A DNA stretch of 12,124 nucleotides, taken from positions 1 to 12,124 of the IMG/VR virus record IMGVR_UViG_2695420576_000002; one strand, given 5' to 3'. Made by a program: the position numbers and the translations under genes. This document shows positions 1-12,124 of this stretch, one piece after another. The number at the start of each line of letters is the position of its first letter. Position 1 is the first letter of the stretch. This stretch comes from a virus. Taxonomy: Duplodnaviria > Heunggongvirae > Uroviricota > Caudoviricetes. The notes below the pieces were generated by a model, which saw only the letters and a list, made by a program, of their open reading frames with translations, had not been told where the DNA came from and did not search any database.

Positions 1-558
1 GTGCCAACGTTGGCACATTTGGGAAAAGCCAAACTTTTCGAATTAATGACAGAAGACGACGAAGAGCTTGCCGAACTGGCCGACGGCGGCACAGTTGCCG
101 GCCTGACGCTTGACGACGTTGATCGCATGTCAGTACGTGAATTGCGTCAGGCCCTGCGCGAAGCGCGCGAAACCAACGCAGCACAACAGCGCGTACTCGC
201 TGACAAAAATGAAAAAATAGACTCACTCTCCACCAGACTGGAGAAGAAATCCCGTATTCAGCCGCCTGAGCCTGATGAAGAGGTTAAGAAGCTGCGGGCG
301 GAAGTGACAGCATTAGCGGTTGAGGCGGAATCTGCTATCGCCGTTCGACTGTCCAGCGCTTTTGAGACGCTGTGCGCATATTGTGCTGAAAACATGATTG
401 ATACCCCCAGAGACTTCATGGCAGGCCTGGTCTGTCAACTGGAAAGCACAGCGCGTAGCCTGCGCTCCACATTTGACCTGCCGGATGAGCCAACAGGCAA
501 TGCCGCGCCTTCATGGCTGACTGAGCCGACGCCACAGATTAACGGGCTGGAGGCATAA
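1..558 (+). CDS. hypothetical phage early protein, 5' partial (reading frame open to the window edge)
   Basis: ORF runs from base 1 to TAA at 556-558. The transposase ATG follows 4 bp later with GGAGG at 548-552, so it is co-oriented with the transposase operon. Acidic N-terminal part and coiled-coil-like middle; no family recognised. True start is probably upstream of the window. Confidence 0.5.
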   Translation: MPTLAHLGKAKLFELMTEDDEELAELADGGTVAGLTLDDVDRMSVRELRQALREARETNAAQQRVLADKNEKIDSLSTRLEKKSRIQPPEPDEEVKKLRAEVTALAVEAESAIAVRLSSAFETLCAYCAENMIDTPRDFMAGLVCQLESTARSLRSTFDLPDEPTGNAAPSWLTEPTPQINGLEA

Positions 559-561
559 CCA

Positions 562-2331
562 ATGAATGCTGCCCTGACTGAACGACTGGTTTATGTCGCC
601 CGCGCGGCACGTGACGCGGGGCATGGTAAACGCGGTGCAATATACGACGCTGCCTGTGCTGAACTTGGCATGTCCCGCGCCACTCTGCTGCGCAGGCTGA
701 AGGAGGTCTCTGTGACTGATAAACGCAAAAAACGCGCTGATGCCGGACGCAGCGCCCTGACCCGCGACGAAGCCGCGCTGATATCTGCCACACTGCGTGA
801 GGCCACCCGCAAGAACGGTAAGCGTCTCTATTCCATCGCGGATGCAGTGGAAACCCTGCGGGCTAACGGCTTTATCTCCGCAGGCAGAACAGATGAAACC
901 ACCGGTGAGTTTTTCCCGTTGTCCGAAGATGCCATCAGTCGTGCCCTGCGTAACTATGGCCTGCACCCGGAACAACTGGATGCTCCTGCGCCGCATACCG
1001 AAGTGGCCAGTCTGCATCCCAATCATGTCTGGCAGATTGATGCCTCGCTCTGCACGCTTTACTACCTGAGCAATGGACACAAAGGGCTGCAGGTGATGGA
1101 CAGCGCGAAGTTCTACAAGAACAAACCCGCTAACCTTGCCCGTATCGCCAGTGACCGCGTGTGGAGTTACGAGATTACCGACCATGCCAGCGGCTGGATT
1201 TACGTTGAGTATGTGACGGGTGCGGAATCCGGTGAGAACCTGTGTTCTGTGCTTATCAACGCCATGCAGGAGCGTGGCGGCGCAGACGTGCTGCACGGCG
1301 TGCCAAAAATACTCTATCTCGACCCCGGTTCGGCAAACACCGCGGGTATGACGAAAAACATGTGCCGCTCACTGGGCATTGACCTGATAGCGCACAAGCC
1401 GCATAACGCCCGCGCCACCGGACAGGTGGAAAAGGCGCGTGACATTATCGAACGCAAGCTGGAGCCGGGTCTGAAGTTCCGGCCGGTTCACAGTCTGGAA
1501 GAACTCAACGCGCTGGCCGCGAAATGGCGCAGCCACTTTAACGCCACGGCTGTTCACAGCCGCCACGGTAAAACCCGCACGGATATCTGGCTGAAGATTA
1601 CTGCTGAGCAGCTGAAAAAAGCGCCTTCCGTTGAGGTATGTCGTGAACTGGCTGTGGCGGCACCAGAACTCCGCAAAGTCACGCCAAAACTTCGTGTCTC
1701 GTTCCGGGGCACTGAATTTGACGTATCAACGGTACCGGGCGTACTGGTTGGTGAAAAACTGATGATTACCCGTAACCCATGGCGCAGCGATGTGGCACAG
1801 GTGGTTCTGACCGGTGAGGACGGCCACGAGACGTTCTTCCTGGTCGAAGAGGTCAGAAAGAACGAGTTTGGCTTTGCTGAAGGCGCGGCGGTATTTGGCG
1901 AAAGTTACAAAGCCCTGCCGGAAACCCCGGCACAGATGGCGGCAAAAGAAACCGAAGCGCTGGTTACCGGTACAGACAACGCCGCAGATGCAGCCGCCGC
2001 ACGCAAGGCGAAGGCGCTGCCGTTCGGCGGGCGGCTTGACCCGTATAAACATATCGACGACACCACACTTCCGGCCTATATGCCGAAGCGTGGTCAGGCC
2101 TCTGACGTACGCGGGCCGCGCACTGAACAACGTCCCATGACTCATGTGGAGGCCGCGAAAGCCCTGCGCGATAAGTTCAGCGCCGACGGCCTTACCTGGA
2201 CGCCGGAACATTACCGCCAGTTAACGGCACAGTACCCGGACGGCGTACCGGAAGCCGCACTGGATGAAGTCATGGCCACGCTGACCACACCGGCCCGCAG
2301 CAGTGTTATCAGCATTGTTAACGGCAACTGA
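562..2331 (+). CDS. DDE transposase, Mu A-like (retroviral-integrase superfamily), 589 aa
   Basis: ATG at 562 with GGAGG 10 nt upstream. Candidate catalytic triad D160 (HVWQIDAS), D254 (LYLDPGS), E290 (TGQVEKA), giving the classic 35-36 residue D-to-E spacing. N-terminal region looks HTH-like. Shorter than MuA (663 aa) and unlike the MuA sequence as recalled. Confidence 0.85.
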   Translation: MNAALTERLVYVARAARDAGHGKRGAIYDAACAELGMSRATLLRRLKEVSVTDKRKKRADAGRSALTRDEAALISATLREATRKNGKRLYSIADAVETLRANGFISAGRTDETTGEFFPLSEDAISRALRNYGLHPEQLDAPAPHTEVASLHPNHVWQIDASLCTLYYLSNGHKGLQVMDSAKFYKNKPANLARIASDRVWSYEITDHASGWIYVEYVTGAESGENLCSVLINAMQERGGADVLHGVPKILYLDPGSANTAGMTKNMCRSLGIDLIAHKPHNARATGQVEKARDIIERKLEPGLKFRPVHSLEELNALAAKWRSHFNATAVHSRHGKTRTDIWLKITAEQLKKAPSVEVCRELAVAAPELRKVTPKLRVSFRGTEFDVSTVPGVLVGEKLMITRNPWRSDVAQVVLTGEDGHETFFLVEEVRKNEFGFAEGAAVFGESYKALPETPAQMAAKETEALVTGTDNAADAAAARKAKALPFGGRLDPYKHIDDTTLPAYMPKRGQASDVRGPRTEQRPMTHVEAAKALRDKFSADGLTWTPEHYRQLTAQYPDGVPEAALDEVMATLTTPARSSVISIVNGN

Positions 2332-2341
2332 GGAGGGAAAC

Positions 2342-3508
2342 ATGCTGGTACTGAAGCAGCAACTGAAAGAGGCCCGTATTCCACAGGCGGTGGTGGCGAG
2401 AGCTGTCGATGTTTCTGAGGCCACGCTGGCCCAGATTGTGAATCATAACGCGTGGCCCCGCACCAGCCCCGGAGAAGTGCGCCGGCGTCTTGCGTCCTGG
2501 CTGGAAAGTCAGGGGATTGATACAACGAAGAGTTTTGATGCTGTACAGGGCGCGGCCACGCCCCGTACAGCGGGTACCACAGATAAAACGAGCCTCAGTG
2601 AGGAAGAGAATATGTTACTCAAAAAACAGGTGTTATTTCCAGCAACCAAAAAAGCGTTTGGTCTTTTCCGTGACCCGTTCGCCGACGAAGCCATGCAGGG
2701 TTCTGATGATGTGTTCACCACCCCGGATATTCGCTACGTGCGTGAGGCGTTGTACCAGACAGCCCGTCATGGTGGGTTTATGGCCGTCATCGGTGAGTCC
2801 GGTGCGGGTAAATCCACGCTGCGCCGCGACCTGACTGAACGTATCAACCGCGAGAATGCGCCGGTAATTGTTATCGAGCCATACATCATCGCTATGGAAG
2901 ACAACGATGTGAAAGGGAAAACCCTGAAGGCAGCAGCGATTGCCGAAGCCATTATCAGTACCATCGCACCACTGGAAAGCATCAGACGCAGTCAGGACGC
3001 CCGCTTTCGCCAGTTGCATCGCGTCCTGAAAGACAGCAGCCAGGCGGGGTTCAGCCACGTTCTGGTGATTGAGGAGGCCCACAGTCTGCCCATTCCGACA
3101 CTGAAACACCTCAAACGCTTTTTTGAGCTGGAGTCCGGTTTCAAAAAACTGCTGTCCATCGTGCTGATTGGCCAGCCGGAACTGGCGACAAAACTGTCTG
3201 AACGCAATATGGAAGTCCGTGAAGTCGTTCAGCGCTGTGAGGTGGTCGAACTTCTGCCTCTGGACAATAACCTTGAAGAGTTTCTGACGTTCAAACTGCA
3301 ACGGGCCGGTAAACAACTGACGGACATTATGGACGCCAGCGCAGTGGATGCCATACGTGCCCGCCTGAGCAATCCGGGAAGTCATCGTAAAAATATGGTC
3401 AGCCTGCTGTATCCGCTGGCCGTCAGTAACCTGGTAATAGCCGCCATGAATCTGGCCGCTGAAATCGGGGTTCCACAGGTCAACGCTGACGTTGTCAAAG
3501 GGGTTTAA
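2342..3508 (+). CDS. transposition target-DNA activator ATPase, Mu B-like AAA+ protein, 388 aa
   Basis: Start chosen at ATG 2342 (AGGAGGG at 2331-2337) rather than the ORF-track start at 2303. Walker A GESGAGKST and Walker B-like VLVIEEAH. N-terminal HTH-like segment. Sits directly after the transposase, as B does in Mu. Confidence 0.8.
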   Translation: MLVLKQQLKEARIPQAVVARAVDVSEATLAQIVNHNAWPRTSPGEVRRRLASWLESQGIDTTKSFDAVQGAATPRTAGTTDKTSLSEEENMLLKKQVLFPATKKAFGLFRDPFADEAMQGSDDVFTTPDIRYVREALYQTARHGGFMAVIGESGAGKSTLRRDLTERINRENAPVIVIEPYIIAMEDNDVKGKTLKAAAIAEAIISTIAPLESIRRSQDARFRQLHRVLKDSSQAGFSHVLVIEEAHSLPIPTLKHLKRFFELESGFKKLLSIVLIGQPELATKLSERNMEVREVVQRCEVVELLPLDNNLEEFLTFKLQRAGKQLTDIMDASAVDAIRARLSNPGSHRKNMVSLLYPLAVSNLVIAAMNLAAEIGVPQVNADVVKGV

Positions 3509-3510
3509 TA

Positions 3511-3780
3511 ATGAAATCCACCACAGGTATCAACCAGCAAATCAGCAAAGTGCAGTCAGCCATTATGGCGCTTAAGGCGACGAACACGGATGTACAAAGC
3601 ATCACCATCAGGGGTAACAAACCTGTCATCCGCGTTTCCCGGAGTGCGCATTGCATGCGCATGCTTGAGCAGGGAAAGGCCTGTTATCTGTATACCGGTC
3701 ATGACCACAGGGGACATTTCCGTCAGGGCGTTTTCGAACTGCACGGCTGTCGCGTCGTGTGGCCGGAATCTTTGTGGTAA
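3511..3780 (+). CDS. hypothetical small protein (89 aa)
   Basis: ORF starts 3 bp after the B stop, same strand, within the operon. No recognisable motifs. Confidence 0.45.
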   Translation: MKSTTGINQQISKVQSAIMALKATNTDVQSITIRGNKPVIRVSRSAHCMRMLEQGKACYLYTGHDHRGHFRQGVFELHGCRVVWPESLW

Positions 3781-3807
3781 TCAGCACAACAGGAGGAGTC
3801 ATAAAAT

Positions 3808-4338
3808 ATGGCAAAAAGTACAAAAGGGGCAAAACGTATCAAAGCCGCAGCAGCACTCTGGGTGCCGGGGACACGCGAAGAGGTCATTGAGGGAATCAGA
3901 CTGCTTGGTGACGCGCAACGTGAACTGGTCAGGGCTGAAACAGAAATGAATGACACCATTGGCGACATCACTGCACGTTATGCCCCGCTCACCGAGAGCC
4001 TGAAAAAACGCATGGCCGAACTGCAGTCCGGTATCCAGACATGGTGTGAGGCGCACCGTGATGAACTGACCGGCAACGGGAAGGTGAAGTTCGCTAACCT
4101 CACCACCGGCGAGGTGCAGTGGCGAAACCGTCCGCCGTCAGTCAGCATTCGCGGGGCGGATAATGTCATTGAACTGCTGAGACGTCTGGGGCTTGAGCGC
4201 TTTATTCGTGTAAAGGAGGAAATAAATAAAGATGCCATTCTGAATGAAAAAGAGGCTGTGAAAAATATTCCCGGTATTACCATAAAAAGTGATATTGAGG
4301 ATTTTTCAATAATTCCTTTTGAGCAGGATGTGCAGTAA
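3808..4338 (+). CDS. gam: Gam-like host-nuclease inhibitor / DNA-end-binding protein
   Basis: 176 aa. AGGAGG at 3791-3796. The translation closely resembles Mu Gam as recalled, including the C-terminal IEDFSIIPFEQ segment and internal segments such as ETEMND, RPPSVSIRG and RFIR.KEEINK. Confidence 0.85.
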   Translation: MAKSTKGAKRIKAAAALWVPGTREEVIEGIRLLGDAQRELVRAETEMNDTIGDITARYAPLTESLKKRMAELQSGIQTWCEAHRDELTGNGKVKFANLTTGEVQWRNRPPSVSIRGADNVIELLRRLGLERFIRVKEEINKDAILNEKEAVKNIPGITIKSDIEDFSIIPFEQDVQ

Positions 4339-4380
4339 ACACACCACGTTAATTATTTAATAAAAACATTTTCTTTTTTA

Positions 4381-4417
4381 TTCCGGCGTCAGCGCCGCGG
4401 GCTTCTGCACGCCGGAA
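4381..4417. repeat. perfect 9-bp inverted repeat TTCCGGCGT / ACGCCGGAA around a 19-nt GC-rich spacer
   Basis: Read directly from the gam to zinc-ribbon intergenic region. Preceded by a T-rich stretch, followed by the RBS and ATG at 4436. No U-tract after the stem, so it is not a classic intrinsic terminator. Confidence 0.6.
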
Positions 4418-4435
4418 ACAGAGGAGAATTAAATT

Positions 4436-4630
4436 ATGATATTTAAATGTATTCAGTGCGAGAGGGATATAACAGCCCTGCGTTTTCACAGCGCCATCGC
4501 CGTGATGTCCGGTAAGTATCACATACCTGCAGTACGTGTCACCCTGGTCTGCCCGTACTGCAGCCAGCATTTTTCGGCGGACGTGCCCGTCATGGAATTC
4601 TCCCGCCCTGACAGGGAGGACGCGCAATGA
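4436..4630 (+). CDS. zinc-ribbon protein (CxxC...CxxC), 64 aa; possibly an Ogr/Delta-like or Com-like regulator
   Basis: C5/C8 and C39/C42 pairs. N-terminus MIFKCIQC resembles the Ogr/Delta start MFHCPLC as recalled. RBS AGGAG lies upstream of the ATG at 4436. Confidence 0.5.
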   Translation: MIFKCIQCERDITALRFHSAIAVMSGKYHIPAVRVTLVCPYCSQHFSADVPVMEFSRPDREDAQ

Positions 4631-4899
4631 TTACCCCACAGGAAGCACGACAGCGCACCCGAACTCTTGTTGAACACTATGTCAACGAGTGTGAATGCCG
4701 CGACCTCACCGATGTGAAGCACGTCCTGACGGCGCTAATCAGCATGGCCACACAGGCCATTGTGGCGACCAACGGAAAGGAGGCTGCCCTGCAGGTACTG
4801 ATGAACACACTCACCCACACGGCAGAGCATGAGGTGCCGTACCGGATGGAAACCACTGCAGAAGGCGGCCTGCACATCACCGTCAGCCGGAAGCACTGA
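4627..4899 (+). CDS. hypothetical protein (90 aa)
   Basis: ATGA start/stop overlap with the upstream ORF at 4627-4630, suggesting translational coupling. RBS AGGGAGGA upstream. No family recognised. Confidence 0.45.
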   Translation: MITPQEARQRTRTLVEHYVNECECRDLTDVKHVLTALISMATQAIVATNGKEAALQVLMNTLTHTAEHEVPYRMETTAEGGLHITVSRKH

Positions 4900-4908
4900 G
4901 GGCGCGGC

Positions 4909-5205
4909 ATGACACGAAACACCGAACTCACCCGCACCGCCCTCTACCGTCTGGCCCTGCAGCGTTTCGGGCCGGACGCACAGGCCCTGAAACTGGCAGA
5001 AGAGGCCGCTGAACTGGCGGCCAGTGCCGCCCGCAACCTGAACGGACAGGGCAGCGAAAGTGACCTCGCGGCAGAGCTGGCAGACGTGGAAATCATGACA
5101 GAGCAACTGCGCCTTCAGGGGATGGACCGGCTGATTGACTTCCACAAACAGAAAAAACTGGAACGTCTGGCTGCACGACTGGGCGTGATTTACACGAACG
5201 AGTAA
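4909..5205 (+). CDS. MazG-like nucleotide pyrophosphohydrolase family protein (tentative), 98 aa
   Basis: About 100 aa and helical. Acidic motifs LAEEAAELA and ELADVEIM are spaced like the EExxE and ExxD metal-binding motifs of small MazG-type NTP pyrophosphatases. Assigned from motifs only. Confidence 0.45.
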   Translation: MTRNTELTRTALYRLALQRFGPDAQALKLAEEAAELAASAARNLNGQGSESDLAAELADVEIMTEQLRLQGMDRLIDFHKQKKLERLAARLGVIYTNE

Positions 5206-5219
5206 CCGGGAGGCATTCA

Positions 5220-5435
5220 ATGGCTGACATACTCAGGGAAATCACCGCATGGACACTGATTCTTACTGGCCTGGCGACATGCCTCAGTGCGGGGGCAGCC
5301 CTGGCTGCCCTGCTGATGCACATAACAACACAGTGGTTATGGGAAAAGCTTAAAGCAGCATACAGCCTGAAAGAGCTGTCCGACGCTGTCCGGGCATGGA
5401 AACGGCAGAAAAATACCGGAGATACAGAACAATGA
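5220..5435 (+). CDS. small membrane protein (71 aa, one predicted transmembrane helix)
   Basis: Hydrophobic segment WTLILTGLATCLSAGAALAALLM followed by a charged C-terminus. RBS GGGAGG upstream. Confidence 0.4.
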   Translation: MADILREITAWTLILTGLATCLSAGAALAALLMHITTQWLWEKLKAAYSLKELSDAVRAWKRQKNTGDTEQ

Positions 5436-6115
5436 CAGACCAGAATAAACACATTGAGAAACTGAAAAAGTTGCTGGCGCTGGCCGCATCCGGCAACCCG
5501 CACGAGGCCGCTCTGGCACTGCGCCGAGCCCGTAAACTGATGGATGTTCACGGCATCACACATTCCGACATTGCTATGAGTGATATTGATGAAACCATCA
5601 GTCACTACTGGCCGACAGGCAGTCTCCGTCCACCGCGCTACATGCTGGGCCTGATGAACATCATCCGCGAGGTATTTGGTGTTAACTCCATCATTCACCC
5701 CGGCACGCATCCGTCTGTGGGGTTCTACGGCAACCGGGAACGTGCGGCACTGGCTGCATACACCTGGGAAGTGCTGGCCCGTCAGCTGAAAAAGGCGCGT
5801 CAGCAGTATATCAGTGCACAGAACAAAAGAATAAAAACCGCCACCCGCACCAGCCGTGGAGACCAGTTTGCCGAAGGCTGGGTGCTGGCCGTTATCAGTG
5901 AAATACAGTCCTTTGCCCTGACCGATGATGAGCGTGAACTGATGCAGCAGTGGCTGGAACATAAATACCCGCAGACGCAAACCACCAGGGCGCGTAAACC
6001 GGGAAGAAGCCGCAATGGCGACGCCTCGCGCTATGCGGGGTTTCGTGAAGGGCAGAACGTCAGACTGCACCGCCCGGTCAGTGGGCAGGAACAACAGAAA
6101 CTGGAGGCCAGATGA
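5432..6115 (+). CDS. DUF2786-like phage protein, 227 aa
   Basis: Start chosen at ATG 5432 (ATGA overlap with the preceding stop, GGAGA upstream) rather than 5396. N-terminal IEKLKKLLALAASGNPHEAALALRRARKLM matches the conserved N-terminal signature of the DUF2786 family as recalled. Confidence 0.55.
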   Translation: MTDQNKHIEKLKKLLALAASGNPHEAALALRRARKLMDVHGITHSDIAMSDIDETISHYWPTGSLRPPRYMLGLMNIIREVFGVNSIIHPGTHPSVGFYGNRERAALAAYTWEVLARQLKKARQQYISAQNKRIKTATRTSRGDQFAEGWVLAVISEIQSFALTDDERELMQQWLEHKYPQTQTTRARKPGRSRNGDASRYAGFREGQNVRLHRPVSGQEQQKLEAR

Positions 6116-6342
6116 TTACGCTATCAGGTAAAAGCCGGAAATTAAAAGCCTGCCGAATATCTGCCAGATACCTTTTTGCCCGCGCCTTTTTTAAGAACGT
6201 CAGGCCGGGGATCACAATTGGTGTTATTGCCGGACGCGAACAGGTTGAAAAATACATGTCAGGTGCATGGTGGAATAACGACCCTGTCATTGCTGCCCGT
6301 AATATTCATATCGAATGGGGAGGTATTCAGAATGACTACTGA
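6112..6342 (+). CDS. hypothetical small basic protein (76 aa)
   Basis: ATGA overlap with the upstream stop and GGAGG at 6103-6107. However the 5' half is AT-rich and contains a palindrome and T-runs, so part may be regulatory rather than coding. Confidence 0.3.
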   Translation: MITLSGKSRKLKACRISARYLFARAFFKNVRPGITIGVIAGREQVEKYMSGAWWNNDPVIAARNIHIEWGGIQNDY

Positions 6343-6538
6343 AACCATTGTCTGTTTTCTTTTCTGGTATATGTACGCAGGATCATGCAGCGCAAGACTT
6401 CATCGTTCCCTGGGCTATGGCAGGCACTACGACACCGCGCATTACATCCTGTACATGACCGCCGTCATGTTGTTCTGGCCAGTCACCCTGCCAGCTGCAA
6501 CCGACATTGTTGCCGACAGACTGAAAAAAAGGAGATGA
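6331..6538 (+). CDS. small membrane protein (69 aa, two hydrophobic segments)
   Basis: ATG at 6331 with GGGGAGG at 6316-6322. Hydrophobic stretches IVCFLFWYMYAG and ILYMTAVMLFWPVTL. Confidence 0.4.
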
Positions 6539-6539
6539 T

Positions 6540-6989
6540 ATGCAGAAAAAACGCCTGATACAGCTTATCCATATTGCCCGTAATGAACTGGGTATGGATG
6601 AAGACACCTACCGCCAGATGTTACAGGGGCTGACCGGTAAAGCCTCAACCAAAGGAATGGATACCACACAACTAAACTGCGTGCTGGAATCCATGAAAAA
6701 GAAAGGCTTTCGCGTTAAACCAGCCAGAAAAGCCAGCTCCGGTTTACCGCTTGATAACCATCCGCAGTCCAGGAAAATTCGTGCGCTATGGCTTGAAATG
6801 GCTGCTGCCGGCATTGTTCGTGACCGTTCAGAAAATGCATTAGCGAGGTGGATCAAGCGGGAAACGGGCATCAGCGCCCTGCGCTGGCTCAGTACTGAAC
6901 AGGCAAGCAGTGTTATTGAGAAACTGAAGAAGTGGCAGCGCAGAGCTGCGGGAGTCAAACATGAGCGACCTGAATCAGTTTCGAAGTAA
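6540..6989 (+). CDS. gemA: GemA/gp16-like regulatory protein (DUF1018 family)
   Basis: 149 aa. The translation matches the gp16 family pattern as recalled (LIQLIHIA...L.GLTGK.S...M...QL..VLE.MK..GF). GGAG upstream of ATG 6540. Sits immediately before the mor-like gene, as in Mu. Confidence 0.7.
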   Translation: MQKKRLIQLIHIARNELGMDEDTYRQMLQGLTGKASTKGMDTTQLNCVLESMKKKGFRVKPARKASSGLPLDNHPQSRKIRALWLEMAAAGIVRDRSENALARWIKRETGISALRWLSTEQASSVIEKLKKWQRRAAGVKHERPESVSK

Positions 6990-7350
6990 GGGGCCGGAAC
7001 TCCTGGTGGAACTGGCACAGCATACCTCTGAGACCGTTCGCGAGATTATTGATATTGAGCCCGAAGTTGCCGACCAGATTGGTCAGGCCGTCGCGAACCG
7101 AATGATGCAGGTCTGGGGCGGGCAAAACGTTTATTTCCCGATGGGCATGGTATGGAAGGTCAGTCAGCGCGACCGGGAAATCTTCAGGGAGTTTAACGGA
7201 CGCAACCACCACGAACTGGCCCGCAAATTTGGTGTTTCGCTTCAGTGGGTCTACAGCGTGGTTAAGCGGGTAAGAAAAGAAGAACTGGATCGGATGCAGG
7301 GCAAGCTATTTGCTGATGAACCCGATGCAGATACGGAGAAAAAAGAGTAA
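6961..7350 (+). CDS. mor: Mor-like middle-operon transcriptional activator
   Basis: 129 aa, the same length as Mu Mor. C-terminal HTH region FNGRNHHELARKFGVSLQWVYSVVKR resembles the Mor/C family. Last gene of the early operon. Overlaps the gemA 3' end by 29 bp. Confidence 0.8.
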   Translation: MSDLNQFRSKGPELLVELAQHTSETVREIIDIEPEVADQIGQAVANRMMQVWGGQNVYFPMGMVWKVSQRDREIFREFNGRNHHELARKFGVSLQWVYSVVKRVRKEELDRMQGKLFADEPDADTEKKE

Positions 7351-7511
<161 letters not shown>

Positions 7512-7673
7512 CAAATACGGCAATCCCGACGATGGGGATCAGCGCCAGCACGGTAGCAACGGCCTGTACGCGGGTGATCATTTTCGGACCGACAATGTTC
7601 AGCAGGACGAAGATCCACAGCACCACGACGCAGGTGATGGTTAATACCAATGGATCTTTCAGAATCGGGAAGA

Positions 7674-7734
7674 AGTAACTTAAATATCTAACTTAAATAT
7701 CCTACGCCAAAGTAACTTAAATATCCTACGCCAA
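7674..7734. repeat. nested direct duplication within adiC: 22-bp unit TAACTTAAATATCCTACGCCAA at 7689-7710 and 7713-7734, plus a 13-bp partial copy at 7676-7688 (net +37 bp)
   Basis: Read directly from the sequence. Relative to the expected single copy encoding IGVGYLSYF, the extra 37 bp shifts the frame and creates a TAG stop (translation ...[15 protein letters not shown]). Confidence 0.8.
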
Positions 7735-7735
7735 T

Positions 7736-7777
7736 GACCACCATGGCGATATTGCCGACCACCATGGCGATATTGCC
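7736..7777. repeat. perfect 21-bp tandem duplication GACCACCATGGCGATATTGCC x2 within adiC (in-frame repeat of GNIAMVV)
   Basis: Read directly from the sequence. The - strand translation shows [13 protein letters not shown] where native AdiC, as recalled, has a single NIAMVV. Confidence 0.85.
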
Positions 7778-8074
7778 GATCCAGCAGGCCAGCCAGTAGA
7801 GGACGTTGGTTTGATAACCGAGAAACGGGCCAAAGCAGCGGCGGGCGTAAGCGTAAGAACCACCAGGACTTGGGTCGAGGAACGACATTTTGGCGTATAC
7901 CATCGAGAGCCCCAGCGCACCGATAATCGTCACCAACCATCCATAAATAGCAATCCCGCCAGTGGAGGCCAGGTTTGCAGGTAACAGAAAAACACCTGAC
8001 CCCATAATATTCCCCGACACCATCAGGGTGACGGGGATTAAGCCCACTTTGTGAGCATCAGCATCCGAAGACAT

Positions 8075-8210
8075 AATTAAACTCCTGCGAAGGCGAGCTT
8101 CGTGACAATAAATTACGTCATATCATACGCCTGCATTCGATAGTTGAATTATTATCGGCCGGGTTATCGCTGATGCCGTTATTAATATAGCTCTTCGTTA
8201 AGGTTAAAAA
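8075..8210 (-). promoter_or_regulatory. adiC upstream region (promoter and 5' UTR, with a small hairpin CGAAGCTCGCCTTCG just upstream of the RBS)
   Basis: Intergenic region between the adiY stop and adiC start. Assigned by position only; no -10/-35 elements were confidently identified. Confidence 0.3.
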
Positions 8211-8972
8211 TCAGGCGACAGTGCGTTCTCTGTGCTGACTAACATAATGCAGCGGCGTCATACCGTAGAAGTCTTTAAAGACAGAAATAAAGTACGACGT
8301 ACTGTTGTAGCCGCAGGACTGTGATACCTGAGAGATATTTTTACCGTCCATCATTAATTCATTTACGGCATAACGCATGCGGCAGGTGGTGATTATTTGG
8401 CTATAACTGGTGTTTTCGCTTTTCAGCTTTTTCTTTAACAGACTTGGGCTAAGACATAAACAACTGGCTACCATACTAAGATTCCAGTCTTTGTGGATAT
8501 CGCTTTCAATAATTTGATAAACGCTGTCACTTACACAATTACGTAACATATACATCATTAGTGAAAGGAATTTTTTACTGTCGAGAAAACGGGATAGCAC
8601 AGTGAATAATAATGCACGTGTTCGTTCCTTTTCTGACTCAGTTTCAGCGGGCATCATGCTATGCTGCGCGGCAACGCGAAAGACGTCTGGCGTCAGGCAT
8701 GGAAGGGTGAGGATGGGCGTAGCGCTACGTTGCCATACTGGTATTTGCGAGAGATCTTTATTCAGAAACCGGAGGTAATCTTTGATGATGTCGTGACTAA
8801 TATGAGCAACCAAAGTGTTATTAAGAGAGGAGACGTCGATAATATTATTTTCACAATTTAATAACGCCATGTGGTTAGCTTTAAGGCTAATAGGTTCTTT
8901 CCCATTCACCCTTATCCAGACATCTTTTTCAGTCAATAAAACAATACAAGGTTGGTCGCTGCAAATCCTCAT
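8211..8972 (-). CDS. adiY: AraC-family transcriptional regulator AdiY
   Basis: 253-aa translation matches E. coli AdiY as recalled. Conserved synteny adiC-adiY-adiA-melR. Confidence 0.9.
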   Translation of the reverse strand: MRICSDQPCIVLLTEKDVWIRVNGKEPISLKANHMALLNCENNIIDVSSLNNTLVAHISHDIIKDYLRFLNKDLSQIPVWQRSATPILTLPCLTPDVFRVAAQHSMMPAETESEKERTRALLFTVLSRFLDSKKFLSLMMYMLRNCVSDSVYQIIESDIHKDWNLSMVASCLCLSPSLLKKKLKSENTSYSQIITTCRMRYAVNELMMDGKNISQVSQSCGYNSTSYFISVFKDFYGMTPLHYVSQHRERTVA

Positions 8973-9163
8973 ACATGTACTCCTGAGTGCGAATAAAAGA
9001 CCAGTTCTCGCTAAAGCGAAGCGATACCGGGAAATGGTTATATAATTGTATGATGAATATAAACATGCATAAAAATAACGAGTTTTACTAATATTACAAA
9101 TTTTTATAGTAATTTCTCATGTACATATTTTTTTACAGGCTAAAAAAAGGATAAATAACAGGC
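8973..9163 (-). promoter_or_regulatory. AT-rich adiY upstream region (putative promoter)
   Basis: Strongly AT-rich stretch at about 9000-9160 between the adiA terminator and the adiY start. Assigned by position only. Confidence 0.3.
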
Positions 9164-9190
9164 AAAAAAAAGCGCGGGGTGGGACCGCGC
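9164..9190 (-). terminator. rho-independent terminator downstream of adiA
   Basis: On the - strand: 6-bp stem GCGCGG, 7-nt loop UCCCACC, stem CCGCGC, then U8. Lies about 120 bp downstream of the adiA stop. Confidence 0.6.
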
Positions 9191-9307
9191 AAAAAGCATG
9201 ACATTTTTTGTTTGCAGCAATTTTTATGAAAACGTTGCCATACTTAAAAGGCCTCAAGCCAGGCGGCGTAATGTTATTTAACAATTACGCCTTCAGCGGA
9301 ATAGTGG

Positions 9308-11578
9308 TTACGCTTTCACACACATAACGTGGTAAATACCGTCAATAATTTCTGTCCCTTCTGTTTCGTGTTCAAATCCAGGGAAATGATGGTCCCAGGA
9401 TTGCAGCGAGCGTAAATAACTTACTTGCGGACTGTTTTTATCGCCGAAGTTTTCACCAGACAGCAGCATCGGGATTCCTGGCGGATACGGGATAACTGAG
9501 TTTGCCGCGATACGTCCTGGCAGATTTTCAATGGATACCAGTTCGACATTGTTGTCGACAATCGCGTTGTACGCTTCACGCGGGGTGATTTCCGCCACCG
9601 GTAGGCCGGAATAGGCTTCATTCAACCGTGCGCCAGGGTTGTTTTCTTTCAGCCAGGCAAACATGGTGTCACCCAGATCGTGAATCCCCATGTTCGCGTA
9701 AGTGTCAGGATATTGTTCAACAAGTTCCGGCATCACCTGCGCCAGCGGTGTGTTGGCATCATAGTGGCGTTTGAAGGAGCAAAGGGTGTTAACCAGAGTC
9801 CCCCATTTCCCACGGGTCACGCCCATAGAGAACAGGAACATAATCTGGAAGTCAGTGGTACGGGTAGGCACAATGCCGTGGCGACCAAGCCAGGCTGTGA
9901 CCAGCGCCGCCGGAACACCGGTTTCTTCCAGTTCACCATCTTCACCCATTCCCGGAGCAAGGATGCTGACTTTAATCGGGTCGAGCATACTCCAGTTATC
10001 CGGAATATCTTTGAAGCCGTGCCAGCTTTCGCCCGGATGCATGACCCAGCAGTCCTGAACGGTGGTCAGCAGTTTGGTTGGTGCGTCAGCAAAGTCATAG
10101 GTTTTGCCGGTTTGTGGGTCGGTGACGACTTCTTTGTTCCACGGTTTGAAGAACCAGCTACCGTCAGCGGTGAACTCTTTATATAGCCGCGCCATCGCCT
10201 GACGGAAATCAACCGCTTCGTCGATCACTTCCTGGGTCAGTGACAGGCCGCTGTTGCCGTCCATCATCGACACCGCCACGTCGTTGGATGCGCAGATGGC
10301 ATACAGCGGGGAGGTGGTGGCATGCATCATGTAGGCCTGGTTGAAGCGGGAGAAGTTAATCGCCCCACGACCTTCACGTACATGAATATAAGAGGCCTGT
10401 GACAGCGCATTCAGCAGTTTGTGGGTGGAGTGGGTGGCGAAAACGGTAGGACCGTTGTGATCGCCAGGTTCGCCGCGCATGGCATAGTGATCGGCATAGA
10501 TCGGGTTGAAACGTGCATAGCCGTACCAGGCTTCGTCAAAGTGCAGACGATCGGAGGTTTTTTCCAGCAGATCCTGTGCTTCTTTAGCGTTATAACACAC
10601 GCCGTCATAGGTGCAGTTGGTCACCACGCAGTAAGACGGTTTTTGCCCGGCTTTGTCTTTGGTCAGCGGGCTTTCATTGATTTTCTTCTGCAAGGTTTCA
10701 GGTTGCATTTCCTGCGGATAGATTGGCCCGATAATGCCGTAGCGGTTGCGGCTTGGCACCATGTAGACCGGTTTCGCGCCTGTCAGCATCAAGCCTTGTT
10801 CGATGGATTTATGGCAGTTACGGTCAACGACCACTACATCGTTATCGGTCATGCAAGCCTGCATGATGGTGCGGTTAGAGCCGGAAGTACCGACGACTAC
10901 CGACCAGGAGCGATCGGCACCAAATACGCGTGCGGCATATCTTTCGCTTTCGCCAAATGCGCCAGTATGGTCAAGCAAAGAACCGAGGGAAGTGCGTTCG
11001 ATACCCATGTCGGTGCGGAACAGATTTTCACCATAATAGTCATGGTAGAAACGTCCGGCGGGTGTTTTGGTAAAACCAACGCCGCCCTGGTGGCCTGGCG
11101 CTGCCCAGGAATATTCATGGATGTCGCTATATTTCATCAGCGCGCTGAACAGTGGCGGCAATAGCTGCTGGCGGTAGCGGGTCATCGCGGCAACGGCGCG
11201 TCCGGCGATAAAGTCGGCGGTATCTTCCAGAATCCAGGCGAATTCATCGACAAGCTCCAGCAGATCCCGGTCCATTGCGGCGAGGGCTTTTTCCCGATCG
11301 CCCAACAGGAAGACCGGCACGTTTTGTTGGCGCTCATGAAGCTTACCGATCAATTGTCTGACGTTTTGATGTTCGTCCGGATGTTCCATTTGATAGCTGA
11401 ACATCAGGCAGTCAATGGCTTCGTTTGAAGAGAGAATGGCAAAACCATCATCAAAGGAGGTGGATTTAATCACGGTAACATTTTGCTGGCTTAAAGCATC
11501 TGCCAGACGCTCAACGGCGTTACCGACCCAGGTGTCTTGATGGAGAAACTCGCTTTCAACAATTAATACTTTCATCAT
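9308..11578 (-). CDS. adiA: biodegradative (acid-inducible) arginine decarboxylase AdiA
   Basis: Full-length translation matches E. coli AdiA as recalled (MKVLIVESEFLHQDTWVGNAVERLADAL... ending ...IDGIYHVMCVKA). The ORF has tandem ATG codons, so the true start may be 11575 rather than 11578. Confidence 0.93.
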   Translation of the reverse strand: MMKVLIVESEFLHQDTWVGNAVERLADALSQQNVTVIKSTSFDDGFAILSSNEAIDCLMFSYQMEHPDEHQNVRQLIGKLHERQQNVPVFLLGDREKALAAMDRDLLELVDEFAWILEDTADFIAGRAVAAMTRYRQQLLPPLFSALMKYSDIHEYSWAAPGHQGGVGFTKTPAGRFYHDYYGENLFRTDMGIERTSLGSLLDHTGAFGESERYAARVFGADRSWSVVVGTSGSNRTIMQACMTDNDVVVVDRNCHKSIEQGLMLTGAKPVYMVPSRNRYGIIGPIYPQEMQPETLQKKINESPLTKDKAGQKPSYCVVTNCTYDGVCYNAKEAQDLLEKTSDRLHFDEAWYGYARFNPIYADHYAMRGEPGDHNGPTVFATHSTHKLLNALSQASYIHVREGRGAINFSRFNQAYMMHATTSPLYAICASNDVAVSMMDGNSGLSLTQEVIDEAVDFRQAMARLYKEFTADGSWFFKPWNKEVVTDPQTGKTYDFADAPTKLLTTVQDCWVMHPGESWHGFKDIPDNWSMLDPIKVSILAPGMGEDGELEETGVPAALVTAWLGRHGIVPTRTTDFQIMFLFSMGVTRGKWGTLVNTLCSFKRHYDANTPLAQVMPELVEQYPDTYANMGIHDLGDTMFAWLKENNPGARLNEAYSGLPVAEITPREAYNAIVDNNVELVSIENLPGRIAANSVIPYPPGIPMLLSGENFGDKNSPQVSYLRSLQSWDHHFPGFEHETEGTEIIDGIYHVMCVKA

Positions 11579-11773
11579 TGCTTACCCGGTTATGAAGGAA
11601 TCTTCGTTGCGGGCAAGTATCTTCCGGCCTTTTCGGGCTGTAAAGCGCGTGAAAAACAAACATTTTTGAAATATTTATTTTTATAAACAATACGTTATGT
11701 GATTATTTTAAATTATTTTCACTGCTTATTATCGACGGCTAAACTATTTTTTTGGCTGATACTGATATCGTCT
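11579..11773 (-). promoter_or_regulatory. adiA upstream regulatory region (AT-rich, putative acid/anaerobiosis-inducible promoter)
   Basis: Intergenic region between the melR stop and adiA start, with a very AT-rich tract at about 11650-11760. Assigned by position; no specific sites identified. Confidence 0.35.
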
Positions 11774-12124
11774 TTAGCCGGGAAACGTCTGGCGGCGCTG
11801 TTGGCTAAGTTTGCGGTATTGTTGCGGCGACATGCCGACATATTTGCCGAACGTGCTGTAAAAACGGCTACTCGAACGAAAGCCTGCCGTCAGGGCAATA
11901 TCGAGAATACTTTTATCGGTATCGCTCAGTAACGCGCGAACGTGGTTGATGCGCATCGCGGTAATGTACTGTTTCATCGTCAATTGCATGACCCGCTGGA
12001 ATATCCCCATTGCATAGTTGGCGTTAAGTTTGACGTGCTCAGCCACATCGTTGATGGTCAGCGCCTGATCATAGTTTTCGGCAATAAAGCCCAGCATCTG
12101 GCTGTAATGCCGGATCAGTTAAGG
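11774..12124 (-). CDS. melR: melibiose operon regulator MelR (AraC family), 3' part; gene continues beyond the window end
   Basis: Translation ...HVKLNANYAMGIFQRVMQLTMKQYITAMRINHVRALLSDTDKSILDIALTAGFRSSSRFYSTFGKYVGMSPQQYRKLSQQRRQTFPG matches the MelR C-terminal HTH domain as recalled. Lies next to adiA as in E. coli K-12. The ORF-track M at 12097 is internal. Confidence 0.85.

Follow-up and report, generated by a model that had tools for sequence, protein, structure and literature searches.

In Escherichia coli, the arginine-dependent acid-resistance system (Adi, or AR3) is encoded by adiA, adiY, and adiC, which lie beside melR and eptA. AdiC is reportedly essential for this system, a finding ascribed to Gong et al. 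2003 and Iyer et al. 2003. The Adi system requires AdiC for arginine uptake as well as agmatine export, with AdiY-dependent promoters that are distinct for adiA and adiC (PMC12826058). The locus described here joins this system to a transposable phage, for which phage Mu, BcepMu, phiE255, and the Escherichia phage PhiKM are the relevant comparisons. Upon insertion, phage Mu duplicates 5 bp of its target. TG...CA ends, in turn, are characteristic of BcepMu-type phages with an rve transposase (PMC2628397).

The DNA that we analyzed (the window; 12,124 nt) is the complete contig AOQH01000112.1 of the E. coli draft assembly GCA_000397345.1 (2013-era). It carries the same adi genes in the same order and with the same sequence as the E. 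coli Adi/AR3 system, including intact promoter regions and the terminator, but differs in that adiC is split by a prophage at codon 168, which would leave the antiporter functionally missing. Positions 7757 to 12104 (approximately 4.3 kb) align without gaps and with 100% identity to E. coli D8, whose annotation lists adiY and adiA as intact. The statement of an earlier note that both genes are full length with a terminator between them is therefore borne out, as both match intact E. coli genes at 100% identity and a terminator-like hairpin is present (Table 1). The PGAP annotation places the adiA start one ATG later, resulting in 755 aa, and Pfam matches to OKR_DC_1_N, OKR_DC_1, and OKR_DC_1_C were found in AdiA. 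For the locus as a whole, we consider it highly probable that codon 168 of adiC was the insertion site of a BcepMu-like phage, that AR3 was lost as a result, and that the small lesions of the contig are draft errors.

Table 1. Coordinates of features in the window (position 1 is its first nucleotide).
Feature	Position	Strand	Evidence or remarks
Early-gene (right) arm of BcepMu-like transposable prophage	1..7513	+	99.9% identity to ECKH-100, L4_E1441, and cS51a prophages
DUF3102 protein, partial	1-558
DDE/rve transposase	562-2331		Pfam rve; PHROG 310 transposase, E 8e-148
MuB-like ATPase	2342-3508		Pfam AAA_22; PHROG 296 transposition protein, E 2e-93
Gam	3808-4338		Pfam Phage_Mu_Gam
GemA	6540-6989		Pfam GemA
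Mor	6961-7350		Pfam Mor
9-nt patch cccacggaa in place of the phage's normal gtcatttat	7491..7499	.	Alignment to siblings
adiC 5' fragment, wild-type codons 1-168	7514..8074	-	Pfam AA_permease_2 match
Right-hand copy of 6-bp target-site duplication	7514..7519	.	AATACG on + strand, CGTATT on adiC sense strand
Three perfect tandem duplications, +58 nt in total	7676..7779	.	TRF; reconstruction from wild type
Tandem duplication, 13 nt	7676-7701
Tandem duplication, 24 nt	7687-7734
Tandem duplication, 21 nt	7736-7779
adiY-adiC intergenic region with adiC promoter region	8075..8210	-	100% identity to D8
adiY, AraC-family activator, 253 aa, intact	8211..8972	-	100% identity to D8
Terminator-like hairpin and T-run, downstream of adiA, between adiA and adiY	9162..9190	-	Hairpin GCGCGGTCCCACCCCGCGC then T8, 9172-9190
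adiA, biodegradative arginine decarboxylase, intact, 756-aa ORF	9308..11578	-	100% identity to D8
melR 3' third; homology stops at 12104, approximately codon 201	11774..12104	-
IS4 terminal inverted repeat at contig end	12105..12124	.	TAATGCCGGATCAGTTAAGG = K-12 IS4 end TAATGCCGATCAGTTAAGG plus one extra G

The phage arm encodes a DDE (rve) transposase together with its AAA+ partner (a MuB-like ATPase), Gam, GemA, and Mor, an early-gene set shared with phage Mu, which it further resembles in its TG...CA termini and in inserting inside genes at unrelated sites with a short target duplication. Over 98% of positions 1 to 7513, it shares 97.3% nucleotide identity with PhiKM (PQ738613.1), compared to approximately 69% identity with phiE255 and BcepMu over the transposase region. 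Unlike in Mu, the layout is BcepMu-like, with an outward-facing early operon at one end and late genes that run the opposite way to a gin-like invertase, the transposase (589 aa) has the rve core only, and the target duplication was 6 bp in two insertions instead of 5 bp. The prophage has a total length of about 37 to 37.5 kb, of which only the 7.5-kb early arm lies inside the window, while approximately 34 kb are found on the sibling contig IMG_VR_283. The terminus in the window (...GTCTAATCA at 7513) ends in CA and is the base at which the ECKH-100, L4_E1441, and cS51a prophages end as well, there beside unrelated host DNA; the element as a whole reads TGATGCGCC...GTCTAATCA, with TG...CA termini and a short target-site duplication. 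Further insertion sites comprise the torZ 3' end, a lambdoid tail gene, irp2, an ABC-transporter gene, and ycaL, and 562 copies of the phage end were counted in 533 of 5,426 complete E. coli genomes (approximately 10%). Thus, this PhiKM/BcepMu-like phage regularly disrupts E. coli genes, irp2 and ycaL among them.

Homology to adiC ends at approximately position 7512/7514, corresponding to nt 503-505 of the gene and codon 168, which is completed by the first phage base; an Asp codon and a stop follow. Only codons 1-168 adjoin adiY, in place of the single continuous gene for the 445-aa AdiC. On the adiC sense strand, this right junction reads ...GGGATTGC CGTATT|TGATTAGAC. It was also found in IMG_VR_283, in AOQB01000082.1, and in 4 independent Logan assemblies (SRR653724, SRR653737, SRR653739, and SRR653745), so that no fewer than 6 independent assemblies from sibling isolates share it, and the corresponding 169-aa adiC product without duplications is encoded on at least 11 contigs in a collection of approximately 15 billion proteins. 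The same adiC-phage junction occurs in none of the 5,426 complete E. coli genomes, and scans of viral_contigs returned no match for either junction sequence.

The reciprocal left junction was observed in 2 sibling assemblies (AOQO01000013.1 and AOQN01000005.1), in which a gin-like resolvase is followed by the phage end, CGTATT, adiC from codon 167 to the stop, eptA, basRS, and proP (...GGCGCATCA|CGTATT TGGCTGG). The right junction in the window and the left junction in the siblings together give a 6-bp target duplication, CGTATT; the cS51a copy of the phage is likewise flanked by 6 bp (CACCGA). With adiC joined to the terminus of a BcepMu-like prophage, the mobile element that had been proposed as the cause of the truncation is supported. 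The cut at codon 168 stands as well, but "lost" is the wrong word for the rest of the gene, since its 3' two-thirds are kept approximately 37.5 kb away across the prophage, as seen in the siblings. A deletion of the adiC 3' end is rejected, as the junction is the natural terminus of the phage and the 3' part is present in the siblings. By analogy to these assemblies, a partner contig of GCA_000397345.1 itself would be expected to carry the adiC 3' half. The ORF called for this part is a 267-aa fragment (M179-445). A fusion ORF of phage end and adiC 3' part, predicted with 295 or 287 aa, was found in neither length in the protein collection; this prediction assumed a 5-bp duplication, whereas the real one is 6 bp. 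P0001 (409 aa with an internal repeat), the top homology match, resembled the partner fragment but was rejected, as it originates from the unrelated and error-rich assembly GCA_029782595.1. Also rejected was P0005, an AdiA(1-104)::AdiC(169-445) fusion in the same breakpoint region, which originates from the unrelated run SRR31283775.

The event is of an ordinary and already known kind, the insertional knockout of adiC by a mutator phage. According to the proposed course, the approximately 37.5-kb BcepMu-like phage would have entered codon 168 in the ancestor of a small E. coli clone, generating the 6-bp duplication. In the window, its early-gene arm is joined to the adiC 5' third, followed by the intact adiY and adiA; the 3' two-thirds lie beyond the other phage end beside eptA, as seen in the siblings. 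The 5' fragment is predicted to yield residues 1-168 with an added Asp, and the 3' fragment no more than residues 179-445, expressed without their own promoter. Because neither of these fragments can make the 12-helix antiporter, and because the Adi system needs AdiC for both arginine uptake and agmatine export, AR3 should be lost: judging from gene structure, AdiA would still be inducible via AdiY, yet exchange of external arginine for agmatine would be impossible. Reconstitution of a functional AdiC from the two halves is unlikely, as no translatable product contains residues 169-178 and the 3' half lacks a promoter of its own, save for possible read-through from gin. A second adiC copy elsewhere in the genome is also unlikely a priori, because adiC is a single-copy core gene: across 5,426 complete E. 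coli genomes, it was found at 5,427 places distributed over 5,414 of them, which amounts to at most 13 extra copies. This natural E. coli clone is therefore predicted to be AR3-negative yet AdiA- and AdiY-positive and might be useful as a natural control strain.

The earlier note had furthermore described the adiC fragment as frameshifted. This is true of the contig as written, in which the three tandem duplications end the ORF (7688-8074, minus strand) at position 7688 after 128 aa; as a real lesion it fared less well, as the duplications are private to this contig, being present in none of the 6 sibling assemblies of the same junction nor in the wild type. Because they were found in AOQH01000112.1 only, the duplications, and with them the frameshift, are probably assembly artifacts. 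They could instead be real secondary mutations, reflecting the decay of an already dead fragment in one isolate, and it is in keeping with this that the copies are perfect and were deposited in a public contig. We nevertheless regard this as unlikely: 3 independent duplications would have accumulated in a stretch of 104 nt, with the remaining 12 kb of the window being the same as in siblings and relatives, and the 128-aa product is encoded on this one contig among approximately 15 billion proteins and by no other assembly or Logan contig. Moreover, a different duplication-like insert of 29 nt, likewise private, is present in adiA of the sibling GenBank assembly AOQB82, which indicates that this assembly series generates such errors, and further mosaics close to junctions are found in this series. 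In any case, the frameshift is irrelevant to adiC function.

A different question is whether the loss of AdiC was adaptive, i.e., a patho- or niche-adaptive inactivation of AR3 comparable to that of cadA in Shigella. The locus shares with the cadA 'black hole' and the pathoadaptive loss of decarboxylase systems in Shigella and EIEC that a mobile element is involved in inactivating an acid-response system built from an amino-acid decarboxylase and an antiporter. The allele is present throughout a clone of isolates, and independent adiC null alleles exist in other lineages (nonsense mutations at W170 and W172, a 1-nt deletion, and an adiA::adiC deletion fusion). These null alleles, however, come from a collection of billions of proteins without a denominator, whereas contiguous adiC is kept in 5,413 of 5,426 complete genomes. 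In contrast to the cadA case, only the antiporter is affected here, adiA and adiY are without decay, the phage inserts randomly, and neither convergence within one pathovar nor any anti-virulence effect is evident. The adi region of the window is identical to that of ordinary uropathogenic and animal E. coli strains, which, rather than Shigella, are its closest relatives. Since the phage interrupts unrelated genes elsewhere, nothing supports the Shigella-like pathoadaptive theme that had been suggested for this locus, and an adaptive origin appears quite improbable. The insertion would rather represent an accidental mutator-phage event, neither targeted nor demonstrably selected.

The terminal patch of the phage arm requires separate consideration. 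Its adiC sense-strand sequence, TTCCGTGG, is that of uninterrupted adiC just past the insertion point, and the patch differs from every other copy of these PhiKM/BcepMu-like phages: none of the 562 phage ends in 533 complete genomes contains it, and the best full-length identity is 92.9%. IMG_VR_283 exhibits a different mosaic at the same place. Two such mosaics of phage-end and uninterrupted-adiC sequence could point to samples in which lysogens are mixed with cells carrying an empty, restored adiC (e.g., after precise prophage loss), rendering function heterogeneous. Empty-site reads are, however, unnecessary as a source, since the same adiC 3' sequence, following the shared CGTATTTG, is likewise present in reads that derive from the other junction. 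In addition, the same kind of mosaic at the IS4/melR junction casts suspicion on the assembler, the Logan contigs are continuous through the junction, and precise excision of Mu-type phages is not known to occur at appreciable frequency. A mixed population is therefore very unlikely, and comparison with the sibling assemblies suggests that the patch is probably a mosaic consensus artifact. Also very improbable is the notion that the mosaics represent real empty-site molecules from a precise exit of the BcepMu-like prophage in part of the population, which would place AR3 under reversible, phase-variable phage control. Finally, although the contig demonstrably holds local assembly errors and the patch contains uninterrupted-adiC sequence, it is barely credible that adiC is really intact and its junction with the phage an assembly chimera, as the junction lies exactly at the natural CA terminus of the phage, recurs in the at least 6 assemblies named above, 4 of them independent Logan de novo assemblies, and has its reciprocal counterpart with the matching 6-bp duplication in the siblings.

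Insertional knockout by the phage thus being the preferred reading, the far end of the contig remains to be described. Neither the siblings nor independent assemblies reproduce the apparent frameshift, the junction patch, or the IS end of the contig, and minor lesions of such draft contigs should not be taken for biology without reads. The IS4 end itself, which matches the K-12 IS4 end at 19 of 19 positions, comprises only 20 nt directly at the contig end, and is odd in its extra G, is probably an error of the draft assembly. At the same melR position, AOQB82 contains an 18-nt IS4-end patch as a mosaic, and another sibling has wild-type melR.

The window is the whole of contig AOQH01000112.1 (draft assembly GCA_000397345.1) in reverse orientation, 12,124 bases, and consists of two blocks, a prophage (1-7513) and the chromosomal adi region (7514-12104). 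From 7757 to 12104, it aligns gap-free and at 100% identity with E. coli D8, whose annotation treats adiY, adiA, and melR as normal genes. This identity bears out the description of adiA and adiY as full length in the earlier note, and a terminator-like hairpin does lie between the two genes; the note's placement of the adiC break at codon 168 is confirmed by the end of homology (see the table); the fragment retains codons 1-167 complete plus two bases of codon 168.

Features of the window and further copies of the prophage end in E. coli comparison strains
Feature	Position	Strand	Remarks
adiC 5' fragment	start codon 8074 down to 7514/7512	-	homology ends at adiC nucleotide 503-505
Three perfect tandem duplications	7676-7779		13 + 24 + 21 nt, in adiC fragment
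adiY	8211-8972	-	253 aa, intact
Terminator-like hairpin, then eight T	9172-9190	-	between adiA and adiY
adiA	9308-11578	-	756-aa ORF, intact
IS4 terminal inverted repeat	12105-12124		20 nt at contig end; matches K-12 IS4 with one extra G
Prophage copy, cS51a			interrupts 3' end of torZ
Prophage copy, L4_E1441	L003 13515 onward		truncates lambdoid tail gene
Prophage copy, TUM2830	L024 8953 onward		truncates irp2 (yersiniabactin synthetase HMWP2)
Prophage copy, EC32	L025 8951 onward		truncates ABC-transporter gene
Prophage copies, several strains	H138-H145		truncate ycaL

The block that cuts adiC matches, at 99.9% identity, a prophage found in many E. coli genomes, and the prophage end adjoins different host DNA in each genome compared. 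According to Pfam and PHROGs, its proteins comprise a DUF3102 protein, a 589-aa rve-type DDE transposase, a MuB-like AAA+ protein, Gam, GemA, and Mor. Escherichia phage PhiKM is 97.3% identical over 98% of the block, while the Burkholderia phages phiE255 and BcepMu reach approximately 69% identity in the transposase region. The complete element in strain cS51a spans 37,556 bp, with late genes running leftward to a gin-like invertase and the early operon running rightward with Mor at the extreme end. It starts with TGATGCGCC and ends with GTCTAATCA, corresponding to the TG...CA termini that PMC2628397 describes in rve-transposase phages of the BcepMu type. The prophage belongs to the transposable, mutator-type phages and can insert at nearly any site. 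With its end detected in 533 of 5,426 complete E. coli genomes, this PhiKM/BcepMu-like phage is a frequent natural mutagen.

Without the tandem duplications, the adiC fragment is predicted to encode AdiC residues 1-168 followed by Asp and a stop codon (169 aa). Exactly this protein is present in the public protein collection, encoded on at least 11 contigs. Among these are IMG_VR_283 (40 kb), AOQB01000082.1 from a sibling assembly in GenBank, and Logan assemblies made independently from the runs SRR653724, SRR653737, SRR653739, and SRR653745. The right junction, at which ...GGGATTGCCGTATT is followed directly by TGATTAGAC..., is identical in IMG_VR_283, AOQB01000082.1, and the four Logan assemblies. 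The left junction was located through a 267-aa AdiC fragment (M179-445) and is present in the siblings AOQO01000013.1 and AOQN01000005.1, in which the phage left end (...GGCGCATCA) is followed by CGTATT and adiC. The order on these contigs is gin-like resolvase, phage left end, CGTATT, adiC from codon 167 to the stop, eptA, basR, basS, pmrR, and proP. The 6-bp direct repeat CGTATT is common to both adiC junctions (window 7514-7519; 906-911 of L022, a sibling contig with the left junction), and the cS51a insertion likewise has a 6-bp repeat, CACCGA (5616-5621 of locus L006 and 13514-13519 of locus L004). Thus, both of the two insertions with comparable ends carry a 6-bp target duplication, whereas that of phage Mu is 5 bp. 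Because both junctions are present and share the repeat, adiC was split by a transposition event rather than deleted, and the adiC-phage junction is not an assembly chimera. The antiporter gene is therefore not "lost", as had been claimed, since its 3' part from codon 167 is kept beyond the phage left end in the siblings; for GCA_000397345.1, we infer a partner contig built like these left-junction contigs. The adiC::phage allele is shared by the isolates of a small clone.

The earlier note had further described adiC as frameshifted. This is correct for the contig as written, where the three duplications add 58 nt and the reading frame closes after 128 residues. However, as a second lesion, the frameshift is private to this contig: the duplications are absent from all six other assemblies of the adiC-phage junction and from all wild-type sequences compared, and in the public protein collection the 128-aa product occurs on the window contig only. 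Outside the 104 bases of the duplications, no indel was found in the window relative to its relatives. Judging from these sequence comparisons, the duplications are very probably artefacts. Whether artefacts or real, they are functionally irrelevant, because adiC is already broken. Within adiA, AOQB01000082.1 (L009) carries a different 29-nt duplication-like insert of its own (GGTCTACATGGTGCCAAGCCGCGCTACAA, approximately 2855-2883), which divides the gene into ORFs of 314 and 466 aa and is absent from both the window and IMG_VR_283. This insert shows that the assembly series yields small duplication errors.

Mosaic patches were found at the junctions as well. A 9-nt patch at 7491-7499, inside the last 23 phage bases, reads TTCCGTGG on the adiC sense strand and matches uninterrupted adiC just past the insertion point, at an offset one base off wild type. 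It is absent from all 562 other copies of the phage end and is probably a consensus artefact; IMG_VR_283 carries a different phage-end/adiC mosaic at the same place. At the other end of the window, the IS4 terminal repeat is joined to melR at approximately codon 201, and AOQB01000082.1 has an 18-nt IS4-end patch (L009 1499-1518) inside an otherwise wild-type melR, at the position where the window contig stops. In IMG_VR_283, melR is wild type. melR may be IS4-interrupted in the clone, or the melR/IS4 join may represent a further junction artefact. Taken together, the duplications, the adiA insert, and the mosaics point to consensus errors of the assembly-series pipeline, clustered near insertion junctions, and it is such errors on top of the insertion that appear to have been read as a second lesion. 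The 9-nt patch leaves room for empty-site reads, which would span GGGATTGCCGTATTTGGCTGGTTCTGG; that the mosaics represent true empty-site molecules, i.e., precise prophage loss in part of the population, is nevertheless highly improbable.

Arginine-dependent acid resistance (AR3) was reportedly lost in the adiC (yjdE) mutants of Gong et al. in 2003 and Iyer et al. in 2003. In the Adi system, AdiA decarboxylates arginine, consuming a proton, while AdiC takes arginine in and agmatine out; adiA, adiY, and adiC each have their own promoter, and AdiY activates those of adiA and adiC (PMC12826058). The adiC promoter region still adjoins adiY, as do codons 1-168. The 3' part, located downstream of the phage gin gene, is translatable only from Met179, and residues 169-178 are absent from every translatable AdiC product. 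Neither piece amounts to a full 12-helix transporter, and the strain would be expected to be AR3-negative with AdiA inducible. A compensating second copy is improbable: among 5,426 complete genomes, 5,414 contain adiC, and the total of 5,427 places leaves room for at most 13 extra copies. The gin-like invertase gene (L022 256-1747) reads outward across the left end; the adiC 3' fragment follows after 116 nt in the same orientation, and read-through could transcribe this promoterless fragment. The intact acid-inducible adiC promoter (window approximately 8075-8210) faces into the right end of the phage and is oriented antisense to Mor.

Selection for adiC loss is improbable, and no result of this analysis supports it. 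The suggested link to a pathoadaptive theme of Shigella-like lineages is unsupported, as ordinary uropathogenic and animal strains of E. coli share an identical adi region, the phage also interrupts unrelated genes in other strains, and adiA and adiY are without signs of decay. The event itself is real but unremarkable: a mutator phage of a known type has inactivated adiC by inserting into it. Independent adiC nulls exist in unrelated lineages, namely nonsense changes of TGG (to TAG or TGA) clustered at two codons, Trp170 and Trp172 (L014-L021, codons 158-172), a 1-nt deletion, and, in one strain, an adiA(1-104)::adiC(169-445) deletion fusion (L027). These came up during the partner-fragment search of billions of proteins, and selection cannot be judged from them because there is no denominator; contiguous adiC is kept in 5,413 of the 5,426 complete genomes. 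An unrelated candidate (L007; GCA_029782595.1, JARCCX010028093.1) has an adiC with a 69-residue internal repeat; many of its neighbours (melA, adiA, basS) are in pieces, and the repeat looks like the product of an error-rich assembly rather than biology.
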